Positions 1 to 42,065 of a DNA stretch of 42,065 bases are shown piece by piece. The position numbers were made by a program, and so were the translations under genes. Position 1 is the first letter of the stretch. Every line of letters starts with the position of its first letter. The notes under the pieces are model-generated. The model did no database searches. It saw only the letters and a program-made list of their open reading frames with translations, and had not been told where the DNA came from. Origin of the DNA: Escherichia coli (lineage in GTDB: Bacteria > Pseudomonadota > Gammaproteobacteria > Enterobacterales > Enterobacteriaceae). Location of the stretch: assembly GCF_003334255.1 (NCBI RefSeq), contig NZ_QOWU01000050.1. One strand, given 5' to 3'.

Positions 1-98
1 AGTTATCGTGAGAGTAATTCATCGGCACGTTAAATCATATCAGGCGTAATACCACAACCCTTAAGTTAGCGCTTATGGGTTTCGGCCCCGGTTCTCTT

Positions 99-725
99 TT
101 ATTTCTGCTTCGTTAACGTGTCATAACTGGTCATCAAATTACGATAATCAGGAATGTGGTTAGAGAACAACGTCGCCAGTCCTTCAATATCATTACGCCA
201 GTCGCGATGCAGCTCGCACGCCACGCCGAACCATGTCATCAATTGCGCACCAGCTTGCGACAAGCGATCCCATGCCGAATGCCGGGTAATTTCATTAAAG
301 GTCCCTGACGCGTCAGTCACGACAAAGACGTCAAACCCTTCTTCAATGGCTGAAAGCGCCGGGAATGCCACGCAAACTTCGGTTACCACACCGGCAATAA
401 TTAACTGTTTTTTACCTGTCGCTTTGACAGCTTTTACAAAATCTTCGTTATCCCAGGCGTTAATATTTCCCGGGCGAGCAATGTAAGGTGTATCGGGGAA
501 TTGTGCTTTCAGTTCTGGAACTAATGGGCCGTTAGGACCGGTTTCAAAACTGGTGGTAAGAATAGTTGGTAAGTTGAAATACTTAGCCAGGTCACCCAGC
601 GCCAGCACGTTATTTTTAAACTTATCGGGTTCGATATCCCGTACAAGGGAAAGTAAACCAGCCTGGTGATCAACAAGCAAAACGGCAGCATCATTTTTAT
701 CAAGACGAACATACGGTTTGGTCAT
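99..725 (-). CDS. ycaC: isochorismatase-family (cysteine) hydrolase YcaC
   Basis: Complete 208-aa ORF (MTKPYVRLDKNDAAVLLVDHQ...), isochorismatase-like fold signature with conserved Cys in ...VVTEVCVAFPA...; length and sequence agree with E. coli YcaC as I recall it. Confidence 0.9.
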   Translation of the reverse strand: MTKPYVRLDKNDAAVLLVDHQAGLLSLVRDIEPDKFKNNVLALGDLAKYFNLPTILTTSFETGPNGPLVPELKAQFPDTPYIARPGNINAWDNEDFVKAVKATGKKQLIIAGVVTEVCVAFPALSAIEEGFDVFVVTDASGTFNEITRHSAWDRLSQAGAQLMTWFGVACELHRDWRNDIEGLATLFSNHIPDYRNLMTSYDTLTKQK

Positions 726-753
726 CCTCTTCTCCTTTCGAGAGTCAGTGGTA

Positions 754-773
754 CGTCTGAAATCGATCAGACG
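754..773. promoter_or_regulatory. 20-bp palindrome CGTCTGA-N6-TCAGACG about 30 bp upstream of the ycaC start, candidate operator
   Basis: Read directly: cgtctgaaatcgatcagacg with perfect 7-bp inverted arms, in the ycaC/ycaD divergent intergenic region. Confidence 0.3.
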
Positions 774-1038
774 CGATGCATTGCTCTGAAAGCATAGACG
801 GGAAATATGAGTTTGCTGTGACCATGAAATTTTTCGACTGAACGAAGCGTATGAAATTTGTGTTAGTTCAATAAAAACAATCAGATGAGACTAATCATCT
901 CTTCAGCATTAGCGTTATGAATGAGTAATATAAATCGATAATACCGCCGCTGGGATATCGCGTATTTTCACCCATTGACAATGTTTTTGGCGGTGGCATG
1001 ATGCGCATGAAATTTGAACTTCCTCACGGTTTTAATTC

Positions 1039-2187
1039 ATGTCCACGTATACCCAGCCTGTCATGCTTTTGCTGTCTGGCCTGCTTTTGTTGACTCTGGC
1101 GATTGCGGTGTTAAATACACTCGTGCCGCTTTGGCTCGCCCAGGAACACATGTCCACATGGCAGGTAGGCGTTGTCAGCTCATCCTATTTTACCGGCAAC
1201 CTTGTCGGTACATTGCTGACAGGGTATGTCATTAAGCGCATTGGCTTTAACCGCAGCTATTATCTGGCCTCCTTCATTTTTGCCGCTGGCTGTGCCGGCC
1301 TTGGCCTGATGATTGGATTCTGGAGCTGGTTGGCTTGGCGTTTTGTCGCGGGCGTCGGCTGTGCCATGATTTGGGTGGTTGTTGAGAGCGCGCTGATGTG
1401 CAGTGGGACGTCACGTAACCGTGGGCGTTTGCTTGCTGCGTATATGATGGTTTATTACGTGGGAACGTTTTTAGGCCAGTTACTGGTCAGCAAAGTTTCA
1501 ACCGAGCTGATGTCCGTATTGCCGTGGGTTACAGGTTTGACGTTGGCAGGGATCTTACCGCTGTTGTTTACGCGTGTGCTGAATCAGCAGGCTGAAAACC
1601 ATGATTCGACGTCAATTACGTCAATGCTAAAACTCCGTCAGGCGCGGCTTGGCGTGAATGGCTGCATTATCTCAGGAATCGTTCTGGGATCTCTATATGG
1701 CCTGATGCCGCTGTACCTCAATCACAAAGGGGTGAGCAATGCCAGCATTGGTTTCTGGATGGCGGTACTGGTCAGTGCGGGTATCCTTGGACAATGGCCG
1801 ATTGGACGTCTGGCGGATAAGTTTGGTCGACTGCTGGTGTTGCGTGTTCAGGTCTTTGTCGTCATTCTCGGCAGTATCGCGATGCTTAGCCAGGCGGCGA
1901 TGGCCCCAGCGTTATTCATCCTCGGTGCCGCTGGCTTTACGCTATATCCGGTGGCGATGGCATGGGCTTGCGAGAAAGTTGAACATCATCAACTGGTGGC
2001 GATGAACCAGGCCTTACTGTTGAGCTATACTGTGGGAAGTCTGCTTGGCCCGTCATTTACCGCTATGCTAATGCAGAATTTCTCCGATAATTTATTGTTT
2101 ATCATGATCGCCAGCGTATCGTTTATCTATTTGCTGATGCTGCTGCGCAACGCCGGTCATACGCCGAAACCCGTTGCTCACGTGTAA
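1039..2187 (+). CDS. ycaD: MFS-family transporter YcaD
   Basis: Complete 382-aa ORF, highly hydrophobic multi-helix protein ([24 protein letters not shown]...), matches YcaD length and sequence as recalled. Confidence 0.9.
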
Positions 2188-2196
2188 ATGAATTCA

Positions 2197-2239
2197 AGCA
2201 GAGTGTGAACTTACTGTTTCACACTCTGCTTTTTTGTTT
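2197..2239 (+). terminator. intrinsic terminator downstream of ycaD
   Basis: 12-bp perfect stem agcagagtgtga / tcacactctgct with a 10-nt loop, followed by ttttttgttt, starting 10 nt after the ycaD stop. Confidence 0.8.
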
Positions 2240-2396
2240 CTTCTATCTGACTTGCTTTATTCCAAATTTTATTCGTTTAAAAATAAAATGTGCAGCAGGT
2301 TATAATTTTGCATTTCGCTATTTCCGCACTTCTTATTTGCCGCGCATAATCCCTCGTTTTACAGATGCCCCTTTAATTTTGGCGAAGGATTTGTCT

Positions 2397-3827
2397 ATGG
2401 CTGGGAATGTTCAGGAAAAACAGTTGCGATGGTACAACATTGCGCTGATGTCTTTTATCACTGTCTGGGGTTTTGGCAACGTTGTTAATAACTATGCCAA
2501 CCAGGGGCTGGTGGTTGTTTTTTCATGGGTGTTTATCTTTGCACTCTATTTCACACCTTATGCGCTAATTGTTGGTCAGTTAGGCTCGACCTTCAAAGAT
2601 GGGAAGGGCGGGGTCAGTACCTGGATTAAACACACGATGGGACCCGGACTGGCTTATCTCGCCGCGTGGACCTACTGGGTGGTGCATATTCCCTATCTGG
2701 CACAAAAACCCCAGGCAATTCTGATTGCGCTCGGTTGGGCGATGAAAGGCGACGGTTCGCTAATCAAAGAATATTCAGTCGTAGCGTTACAGGGGTTAAC
2801 GCTGGTGCTGTTTATCTTCTTTATGTGGGTTGCTTCACGCGGTATGAAATCGCTGAAAATCGTCGGTTCTGTGGCAGGGATTGCTATGTTTGTTATGTCG
2901 CTCCTGTATGTGGCGATGGCGGTAACCGCGCCTGCAATTACTGAAGTGCATATTGCGACCACAAACATTACCTGGGAAACGTTCATTCCTCATATCGACT
3001 TTACCTACATTACCACTATTTCAATGCTGGTTTTCGCGGTTGGCGGAGCAGAGAAGATTTCTCCTTACGTTAATCAAACGCGCAACCCAGGAAAAGAATT
3101 TCCAAAAGGGATGTTATGCCTGGCGGTGATGGTTGCGGTTTGTGCCATTCTGGGCTCGCTGGCGATGGGGATGATGTTTGATTCGCGTAATATCCCGGAT
3201 GACTTAATGACCAACGGTCAGTATTACGCCTTTCAGAAGCTGGGCGAGTATTACAACATGGGTAATACTTTAATGGTGATTTACGCCATTGCGAATACCC
3301 TGGGACAAGTAGCGGCGCTGGTATTCTCGATTGATGCCCCGCTTAAAGTGCTATTAGGTGATGCTGACAGCAAATATATTCCAGCCAGTTTATGTCGTAC
3401 CAACGCTTCTGGTACGCCCGTTAATGGCTATTTTCTGACCCTGGTACTGGTGGCGATTCTGATTATGCTGCCGACTCTCGGCATTGGTGATATGAACAAT
3501 CTCTATAAATGGCTGTTGAACCTTAATTCGGTAGTGATGCCGCTGCGTTATTTATGGGTATTTGTTGCATTTATTGCAGTCGTTCGCTTGGCGCAGAAAT
3601 ATAAACCAGAATATGTCTTTATTCGTAATAAGCCTCTGGCAATGACCGTCGGGATTTGGTGTTTTGCCTTTACCGCCTTTGCCTGTTTGACGGGGATCTT
3701 CCCGAAAATGGAAGCCTTCACTGCAGAGTGGACCTTCCAGTTGGCGCTGAATGTTGCAACGCCGTTTGTGCTGGTAGGATTAGGACTGATATTCCCGCTG
3801 CTGGCGCGTAAAGCGAATAGTAAATAA
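2397..3827 (+). CDS. ycaM: APC-superfamily amino acid/polyamine transporter YcaM
   Basis: 476-aa polytopic membrane protein starting MAGNVQEKQLRWYNIALMSF; ATG at 2397 preceded by an aagga Shine-Dalgarno. The ORF-track start at 2205 lies inside the ycaD terminator hairpin and is rejected. Confidence 0.85.
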   Translation: MAGNVQEKQLRWYNIALMSFITVWGFGNVVNNYANQGLVVVFSWVFIFALYFTPYALIVGQLGSTFKDGKGGVSTWIKHTMGPGLAYLAAWTYWVVHIPYLAQKPQAILIALGWAMKGDGSLIKEYSVVALQGLTLVLFIFFMWVASRGMKSLKIVGSVAGIAMFVMSLLYVAMAVTAPAITEVHIATTNITWETFIPHIDFTYITTISMLVFAVGGAEKISPYVNQTRNPGKEFPKGMLCLAVMVAVCAILGSLAMGMMFDSRNIPDDLMTNGQYYAFQKLGEYYNMGNTLMVIYAIANTLGQVAALVFSIDAPLKVLLGDADSKYIPASLCRTNASGTPVNGYFLTLVLVAILIMLPTLGIGDMNNLYKWLLNLNSVVMPLRYLWVFVAFIAVVRLAQKYKPEYVFIRNKPLAMTVGIWCFAFTAFACLTGIFPKMEAFTAEWTFQLALNVATPFVLVGLGLIFPLLARKANSK

Positions 3828-4736
3828 TTATTGTGGTCGGTGACGCTGACTCTGGCAGATCTGACCCGTTTTTACATAATCGAGAAATGCGCGCAAGCCG
3901 CAGGACATATACTGGCGGTTTGGATAATAGATCTGGAAGCCTGGACGCTCTGTGCTCCAGTCTTCCAGTACACATTCTAAACGACCAGTATCAAGGTACT
4001 CCTTGATCTGTTCATAGAGCAGATACCCGATACCAGCACCCATCAAAACGGCCTCCAGTTCAGCATCAACATCATCCAGAATGATATTTCCTGCGACAGC
4101 AATTTCCAGCTCCTTTGCAAATTGCCAGTGGAAAGGTTTGCCGCTGGGATAACGAAAAACAACACATTGATGATTAAGCAGATCATGAGGATGGCGGGGT
4201 TTGCCATATCTTGCAAAGTACTCTGGCGTTGCTGCTACACATAATTTCACTGGCGGGCCGATCGCCACGCTGATCATATCTTTTTCGACGATGCAACTAA
4301 GTCGAACGCCAGCGTCAAAGCCCTGTTGGACGATATCGACAAGAGAGTCGTCAGTTGTGAGCTCGACTTTAATATCAGGATATTCACGTGTGAAACCAAC
4401 CAGTAAAGACATTAAAAATATACGTGCAGCTACCCGGGCGGCATTGATTTTGAGCGTTCCTGTCGGTGTCAGACGAAAATCATTCATCTCATCTAACATG
4501 ATCTGAATTTCGTCGAAAGCTGGGCGCAATCGTTCATAGAGATTAGAACCCGCTTCCGTTAACGATACGCTTCGGGTTGTCCGATTGAATAAGCGAATTT
4601 TAAGACGTTGTTCCAGTGTTTTAATACTATGGCTAATGGCGGACGAGGATAAGCCTAACTCATCGCCCGCTGCACGAAAGCTTTGATTACGGGCCACGGC
4701 AAAGAAAGTGGCAAAGTCAGACATATTCATCCGCAT
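3828..4736 (-). CDS. ycaN: LysR-family transcriptional regulator YcaN
   Basis: 302-aa ORF with N-terminal LysR-type HTH (FATFFAVARNQSFRAAGDELGLSSSAISHSIKTLEQRL) and a C-terminal substrate-binding domain; convergent and directly abutting the ycaM stop. Confidence 0.9.
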   Translation of the reverse strand: MRMNMSDFATFFAVARNQSFRAAGDELGLSSSAISHSIKTLEQRLKIRLFNRTTRSVSLTEAGSNLYERLRPAFDEIQIMLDEMNDFRLTPTGTLKINAARVAARIFLMSLLVGFTREYPDIKVELTTDDSLVDIVQQGFDAGVRLSCIVEKDMISVAIGPPVKLCVAATPEYFARYGKPRHPHDLLNHQCVVFRYPSGKPFHWQFAKELEIAVAGNIILDDVDAELEAVLMGAGIGYLLYEQIKEYLDTGRLECVLEDWSTERPGFQIYYPNRQYMSCGLRAFLDYVKTGQICQSQRHRPQ

Positions 4737-41005: not shown

Positions 41006-41037
41006 TAAAAAAAACAGGACCAAAGTCCTGTTTTTTC
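41006..41037 (-). terminator. intrinsic terminator downstream of ompF
   Basis: On the minus strand aaaaaacaggac-tttg-gtcctgtttttttt, 25 nt after the ompF stop. Confidence 0.85.
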
Positions 41038-41061: not shown

Positions 41062-41988
41062 TTAGAACTGGTAAACGATACCCACAGCAACGGTGTCGTC
41101 TGAACCTACGCCCAGTTTGTTGTCAGAATCGATCTGGTTGATGATGTAGTCAACATAGGTGGACATGTTTTTGTTGAAGTAGTAGGTTGCGCCCACTTCA
41201 AAGTAGTTCACCAGATCAACATCACCGATATCTTCTACGTCTTTCGCTTTAGATTTGGTGTAAGCGATGGACGGACGCAGACCGAAATCGAACTGGTATT
41301 GCGCAACTAACAGAACGTCTTGCGTTTTGTTGGCGAAGCCGCTGGTGTTTGTAAATTTATTAGTGATCGGCGTAGCGTTACGGGTTTCACCGTAGTTCGC
41401 TGCCAGGTAGATGTTGTTCGCGTCGTACTTCAGACCAGTAGCCCACTGTTCAGCTTTTTTACCGTTGCCAAGAGGTTGAGCTTCTTGCAGGTTGGTACGG
41501 TCAGCTGCACCATAAGCACCAACGATACCAAAGCCTTCGTATTCGTAGCTGATAGAACCGCCAACACCGTCGCCGTTAGAGCGGCGTGCAGTGTCACGCT
41601 CGTTTTTACCCAGGTACTGAACAGCGAAGTTCAGGCCATCAACCAGACCAAAGAAGTTGGAGTTACGATAGGTAGCAACGCCGCCAACACGACCAACGAA
41701 GAAGTCATCGCTGTATGCAGTATCACCACCAAATTCTGGCAGCATATCGGTGTAACCCAGTGCATCATAAACCACACCGTAGTTACGGCCGTAATCGAAA
41801 GAACCAATGTCAGCGTATTTAAGACCCGCGAATGCCAGACGCGTTTTGTTACCAGTTTGAGCGTCAGCGCCTTCAGAGTTGTTACCCTGGAAGTTATATT
41901 CCCACTGACCATAACCGGTCAGATCGGAATTGATTTGTGTTTCCCCTTTAAAACCAAGACGGGCATAAGTTTTGTCGCCGTTTCCGCC
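41062..41988 (-). pseudogene. ompF: outer membrane porin OmpF, 3' portion only (precursor codons 55-362); 5' end replaced by IS1
   Basis: Minus-strand translation reads [33 protein letters not shown]...[13 protein letters not shown], matching OmpF from mature residue 33 to the C-terminus. Upstream of 41988 the frame runs into IS1 sequence and hits the insB stop codon at 42004-42006; no signal peptide or start codon is present. Confidence 0.85.
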
Positions 41989-42065
41989 GGTAATGACTCC
42001 AACTTATTGATAGTGTTTTATGTTCAGATAATGCCCGATGACTTTGTCATGCAGCTCCACCGATT
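41989..42065 (-). mobile_element. insB: IS1 right end (terminal inverted repeat plus last 20 codons of insB), element continues beyond the window
   Basis: ggtaatgactccaacttattgatagtgttttatgttcagataatgcccgatgactttgtcatgcagctccaccgatt is the reverse complement of the IS1 right terminus as I recall it. Minus-strand translation gives ...SVELHDKVIGHYLNIKHYQ-stop, the InsB C-terminus, followed by the terminal repeat GGTAATGACTCC. Confidence 0.85.

Follow-up and report, generated by a model that had tools for sequence, protein, structure and literature searches.

The porin gene ompF of this Escherichia coli strain has very probably been split by a simple insertion of IS1, with duplication of nine base pairs of the target. 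The split lies at the end of the window, that is, the whole stretch of 42,065 nucleotides that we analysed (contig NZ_QOWU01000050.1 of the assembly GCF_003334255.1). Both junctions between the element and the gene, the duplicated target, the common orientation of the two and the intact flanks can be read directly, one junction in the window and in a public assembly, the other on public contigs. From this we infer that the two junctions enclose exactly one IS1. An earlier, sequence-only reading of this DNA had proposed that IS1 was inserted in ompF or that the locus was rearranged at it; the first branch of this proposal holds, while a deletion, an inversion or an assembly artefact finds no support in the data.

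Let us begin with the part of the element that is present in the window. The last 77 bp (41989-42065) match the terminus of the complete 768-bp IS1A of strain SK1144 with 100% identity, in agreement with the earlier claim that the window ends in the right end of IS1. From 41989 on they begin with GGTAATGACTCCAACTTATTGATAG, and they include the right-end terminal inverted repeat GGTAATGACTCCAACTTATTGAT, as is characteristic for the IS1 family; in the SK1144 element, the two ends are imperfect inverted repeats. The translation of the minus strand gives the C-terminus of InsB (...SVELHDKVIGHYLNIKHYQ, followed by the stop codon). We are thus dealing with the right (IRR) end of IS1, and insB runs in the same direction as ompF, just as had been claimed. 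Only the last 19 codons of insB are found here, and the interior of IS1, where a complete element of about 768 bp has insA and insB linked through a programmed -1 frameshift, lies beyond the window; at the identical junction in the contig CBCRYS010000060.1, the partial InsB product matches the Pfam family PF03400 (DDE_Tnp_IS1). The same 77-bp end occurs at an identity of at least 99% in 7,458 E. coli records, with a median of 10 matching places per genome.

On the other side of the junction, the minus strand of 41062-41988 translates without interruption into the OmpF residues 55-362 and a stop codon. At the DNA level, the fragment is 100% identical to the intact ompF (protein WP_000977906.1) of strain JP538 (NZ_AP025180.1) and of about seven other complete genomes. 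The same degree of identity to JP538 and about seven complete genomes, in which ompF is intact and annotated, extends over the 12 kb that end at position 41988. In a pairwise alignment, 41988 is the last position homologous to ompF; the match can be drawn out by one base, to 41989, since the IS1 end GGTAATGAC starts with a G that happens to be the next base of ompF as well. IS1 abuts ompF at codon 55, which corresponds to Gly33 of the mature protein if one counts the signal peptide of 22 residues seen in the intact OmpF. The assignment of the fragment to ompF rests on the complete identity of residues 55-362 to WP_000977906.1 as well as on its surroundings: within the window its neighbour is aspC, while asnS is found beyond the IS1 end of the partner contig.

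What could still be expressed from this fragment? The stop codon of insB sits in the frame of ompF, five codons ahead of the junction (41989-42006), and it is most likely that this shared frame is a coincidence without consequence. After this stop codon, the first in-frame ATG, GTG or TTG is a GTG at 41775. Taken together, the in-frame stop and the late position of the first possible start leave the fragment without a start codon, a signal peptide or a promoter; for the first two of these, the sequence-only reading had said the same. An intact reading frame that opens with a start codon and encodes a signal peptide at the N-terminus is not found in the fragment, from which IS1 separates codons 1-54. 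Judged by its sequence, we class it as a pseudogene fragment. The product of 237 amino acids that is called from the truncated gene matches PF00267 (Porin_1) and has entered the public databases under the accessions CUK11517.1 and CAM3162098.1, annotated as fragments of "porin OmpF". We also looked at a metagenome scaffold with the same 237-residue product and rejected it: its ompF is intact apart from stretches of N, and it has no IS1 junction.

Downstream of the fragment, we noted by eye a hairpin that can serve as the intrinsic terminator of ompF. The consensus terminator scan did not list this hairpin, perhaps because the runs of A and T lengthen its stem. Since ompF has a terminator of its own and aspC is a separate gene, the insertion is expected to have no polar effect on aspC. 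The coordinates of all these features are collected in Table 1.

Table 1. Features at the interrupted end of ompF, in coordinates of the window.
Feature	Position	Strand	Basis or remark
Putative intrinsic terminator of ompF, between ompF and aspC	41007..41036	-	hairpin acaggac-caaa-gtcctgt (41014-41031) with A and T runs on either side; read by eye
ompF 3' fragment, codons 55-362 and stop codon (41062-41064)	41062..41988	-	translation; identity to intact ompF
9-bp IS1 target site, ompF codons 55-57 (Gly-Gly-Asn)	41980..41988	.	GTTTCCGCC on the plus strand, GGCGGAAAC on the ompF sense strand
IS1 right end (IS1A type)	41989..42065	-	identity to the IS1A of SK1144; InsB translation; the window ends after 77 bp of the element
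Terminal inverted repeat IRR	about 41989-42011	-	within the IS1 right end
insB 3' end, 19 codons	42007-42065	-	stop codon at 42004-42006

Next, we asked why the window should end where it does. Its other end is built in a similar way: positions 1-77 are the terminal 76-77 bp of IS186/IS421, an element of the IS4 family, located between dmsC and ycaC at the GC-rich site GGGTTTCGGCCCC, which the sequence-only reading had missed. Exactly this junction recurs in 31 complete E. coli genomes, among them that of FORC 064, where the full element occupies the site and is flanked by a duplicated target of about 11-12 bp. JP538, the closest genome, has no IS186/IS421 at the dmsC-ycaC site. Consequently, the claim that the window differs from the reference arrangement at ompF alone has to be given up. 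As the window stops 77 bp inside an insertion sequence at each end, it is a whole short-read contig bounded by repeats, and the 77 bp of IS1 are where they are because multicopy insertion sequences break short-read assemblies. An exact cause of the 77-bp ends in terms of k-mers was considered and dropped, as the partner contigs carry 104 and 120 bp of IS1; only the break at repeats is claimed here. It follows that the absence of the first 54 ompF codons reflects where the contig was cut off and does not extend to the genome. The earlier statement that ompF lacks these codons is true for the window and wrong for the genome, in which codons 1-54 lie on another contig. More generally, a gene that seems to have lost its 5' end at the edge of a contig has often been split by an insertion sequence, with its other half on another contig.

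A simple insertion with a 9-bp duplication makes a precise prediction for the left junction: the ompF codons 1-57, joined to the left end of IS1, should give an open reading frame of 65 amino acids. The sequence of this frame, in which ...SYGGN leads into GDAANLLI and a stop codon, was written down before the look-up and then searched for by exact match. We found it on seven public contigs: one in GCA_965136505.1, one in GCA_001299315.1, and five Logan contigs, one of which occurs in 17 samples. In all of them the left junction reads ...agttac ggcggaaac/GGTGATGCTGCC, where the slash marks the border (also given as ...agttacggcggaaac/GGTGATGCTGCC), and the IS1 parts of these contigs are identical to IS1A. 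The right junction, GTCATTACC/ggcggaaac, is common to the window and the contig CBCRYS010000060.1. At both junctions we see GGCGGAAAC, that is, a direct target duplication of 9 bp as is typical of IS1, the second copy of which lies on another contig. The sequence-only reading had anticipated this repeat (gtttccgcc on the plus strand, 41980-41988) along with the remainder of ompF beyond the element, and the public assemblies contain both.

Two of these assemblies are especially informative. GCA_965136505.1 carries both the right and the left junction; its contig CBCRYS010000060.1, which matches the window over 4,004 bp with 100% identity, ends in 127 bp of IS1 whose border with ompF falls on the same base as in the window. 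In GCA_001299315.1, the contig CYUC01000044.1 (42,067 bp) contains an identical ompF stretch of 1,014 bp, 2 bp off the coordinates of the window; the match to this contig refers to its near-identical size and to the 1,014-bp stretch, not to the whole contig. Another contig of this assembly, CYUC01000041.1, ends in the left junction, so both halves of ompF are present in one assembly, each of them capped by one end of IS1. The window is probably the 42,067-bp contig itself or a re-assembly of the same clone that is nearly identical to it. Beyond the 5' fragment of ompF follow the ompF promoter region, asnS, pncB and pepN, as in the reference, with 99.98% identity to JP538.

We were not able to find the exact junction in any of the 5,426 complete E. 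coli genomes, and the five records that cover at least 80% of the query represent other IS1 events nearby. Likewise, a search among species-representative genomes in which allele variants were allowed gave no match to the exact junction.

These results bear on several other explanations of the junction. A deletion or an inversion at IS1 was rejected on account of the reciprocal junction, the matching duplication and the intact far flank; the existence of both flanks and both junctions excludes a deletion adjacent to the element. One could also suspect that the junction is a chimera, produced during assembly at a repeat, and that ompF is in reality uninterrupted, given that the window is a short-read contig with repeats at both ends. 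Such a chimera would have to have arisen again in an independent assembly with the same right junction, and reciprocally, as the left junction, in two NCBI assemblies and five Logan contigs, one of them in 17 samples. Moreover, chimeras do not create a perfect 9-bp target duplication common to both junctions, and we consider the chance of an artefact to be negligible.

Another explanation accepts the simple insertion and adds a later step, in which homologous recombination between IS1 copies inverted, deleted or moved DNA so that the two junctions are no longer neighbours. The left and the right junction lie on separate contigs in every assembly found, never on a single one, and with a median of 10 matching places per genome E. 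coli offers many copies of IS1 for such an exchange. On the other hand, both junctions persist with their matching 9-bp duplication and the flanks are intact over distances that range from above 4 kb to above 40 kb; had an adjacent deletion taken place, one of the junctions would be gone, and the data give no reason to assume a rearrangement. A later recombination therefore seems very improbable to us.

A similarly small probability is assigned to an insert larger than one IS1. IS1 is known to form composite transposons, and a Tn9-like composite of two direct IS1 copies with a cargo between them might have entered ompF as a unit. It, too, would leave IRL at one junction and IRR at the other, together with the 9-bp duplication. 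The IS1 sequence assembled next to the junctions amounts to 25-127 bp (at most 127 bp on the right and 120 bp on the left), and the short-read contigs stop within it on both sides, so that the interior is not seen. However, nothing points to a cargo, and the fully assembled IS1 insertions at the ompF locus (in MB51, CUVET16-394 and EC25) are single elements. Insertions of a single IS1 are also far commoner in general, with the median of 10 matches to the IS1 end per E. coli genome.

The simple insertion of one element remains our preferred reading, and the course of events may be pictured as follows. A single IS1 of the IS1A type (768 bp) would have transposed into the coding sequence of ompF, in the same orientation as the gene, and would have duplicated the 9-bp target GGCGGAAAC at codons 55-57 in doing so. 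The 5' part of the split gene comprises the promoter and the codons for the signal peptide and for 35 residues of the mature protein; it reads into the left end of IS1 and would give an exported peptide of 65 amino acids that ends in GDAANLLI. The 3' part, codons 55-362, is left without a promoter, a start codon and a signal peptide. The remaining locus is undisturbed, with aspC on one side and asnS, pncB and pepN on the other. In the closest complete genomes (JP538, G1/2, G6/7, G8, MB06232, cM8a and B-1109) ompF is intact at 100% identity, from which it follows that the interrupted state is the derived one.

As for the consequences, we predict from the reading frames that the allele is null, since full-length OmpF could not be made from it. 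The entry of IS1 into this gene is a well-known way to a less permeable outer membrane. The loss of OmpF slows the entry of beta-lactams and of some other hydrophilic antibiotics, and it removes the receptor or translocator of certain colicins and phages. The phenotype that we would infer is accordingly that of OmpF loss, with less entry of beta-lactams and the loss of the OmpF-dependent receptor for colicins and phages. The predicted loss may be useful for the annotation of the strain and for genome-based prediction of resistance.

How does this allele compare to other disruptions of the gene? The closest counterpart is found in the complete genome of MB51 (NZ_CP073946.1), where an IS1A interrupts the coding sequence of ompF in its 5' part. 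It shares with the insertion in the window the orientation and a target duplication of 9 bp. The flanks with asnS and aspC are intact there, and RefSeq annotates ompF as a pseudogene with a missing N-terminus. Nevertheless, the insertion in MB51 is an independent event: it lies 21 bp further upstream, has the duplication GGGTAACGG and concerns a K-12-like ompF allele, and the region of its junction is only 86% identical to that of the window. In CUVET16-394 and EC25, an IS1 is found between asnS and ompF, again in the same orientation as in the window. In contrast to the window, it is inserted roughly 85-115 bp upstream of the ATG (according to the annotated coordinates), between ompF and its promoter, and leaves the coding sequence intact; one would therefore expect it to act on transcription and on the control by OmpR rather than on the protein. 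In all three genomes, the transposase is encoded on the ompF strand.

Codons 55-57 of ompF may be a true hotspot of IS1, which was hit independently in different lineages of E. coli. At present we consider this possible but somewhat doubtful. One observation comes from the Logan contig of SRR36319702. It carries the identical left junction, and its pepN-pncB-asnS flank (1-4200) differs at 73 positions (about 1.8%) from the lineage of the window and is 100% identical to another lineage, represented by WP9-S17-ESBL-11, NMBU_W05E18, 190693 and others. The ompF allele of this other lineage, which encodes WP_000977905.1, has only the nucleotides 1-236 in common with the allele of the window. The junction in SRR36319702 could be due to an independent hit of IS1 at the same nucleotide, or to the recombinational import of the interrupted allele.

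A further candidate is isolate 44 (NZ_CM194531.1), in which an IS1F is found in the same orientation and within 2 nt of the homologous porin position. Here, on the other hand, the target is a decayed porin paralogue next to drpB, yedJ and dcm, and the IS1F, a different variant of IS1, has become a pseudogene; the insertion seems to be an old one. The same region of isolate 44 (about 2178-4014) also holds fragments of IS30 and IS600. Together, the junction in SRR36319702, the insertion in MB51 at a distance of 21 bp and the IS1F of isolate 44 give a hint of a local target preference of IS1, for which the evidence is thin. If these were indeed independent events, a short stretch of porin genes would be a preferred target of IS1 that repeatedly gives rise to porin-null alleles under selection.

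Disruptions of the 5' part of ompF are found in other forms as well. A truncated, C-terminal product of 232 amino acids, which derives from the ompF allele encoding WP_000977905.1, another common allele, appears as a gene of its own in 164 index blocks, so the 5' part of ompF is often disrupted. In most of the eight places shown (24 contigs were read), a short N-terminal porin reading frame of 50-119 amino acids lies just upstream of the 232-residue frame. Small, early frameshift or nonsense disruptions thus seem to be widespread in the lineage of the WP_000977905.1 allele. In the complete genome of JCH8249 (NZ_CP132020.1), which belongs to this other lineage, a transposase of the ISEcp1 family is annotated at ompF and the remnant of the gene is labelled "phosphoporin PhoE"; by this annotation, it is another disruption of ompF by an insertion sequence.

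The literature contains a number of related cases. In E. coli collections, ompF has been described as a replicated hotspot of mobile element insertions, where loss of function recurs among isolates and is associated with meropenem resistance (bioRxiv 10.1101/527788). Among carbapenem-resistant bloodstream isolates, an insertion of IS2 in ompF was found, and mutations of ompC and ompF were frequent (PMC9601100). The particular site in ompF that we find here is not described in these two reports. A French survey counted a pseudogenised ompF in 47 carbapenemase-producing isolates (bioRxiv 10.1101/2021.10.19.464995). One further paper (PMC10359306) was set aside as irrelevant, since ompF is merely a CRISPR target there. 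The insertion of insertion sequences in ompF is hence a documented and recurrent class of mutation that is already known, and the allele of the window itself is already present in public databases; the interruption of ompF by IS1 can be regarded as a routine example of this well-documented class.
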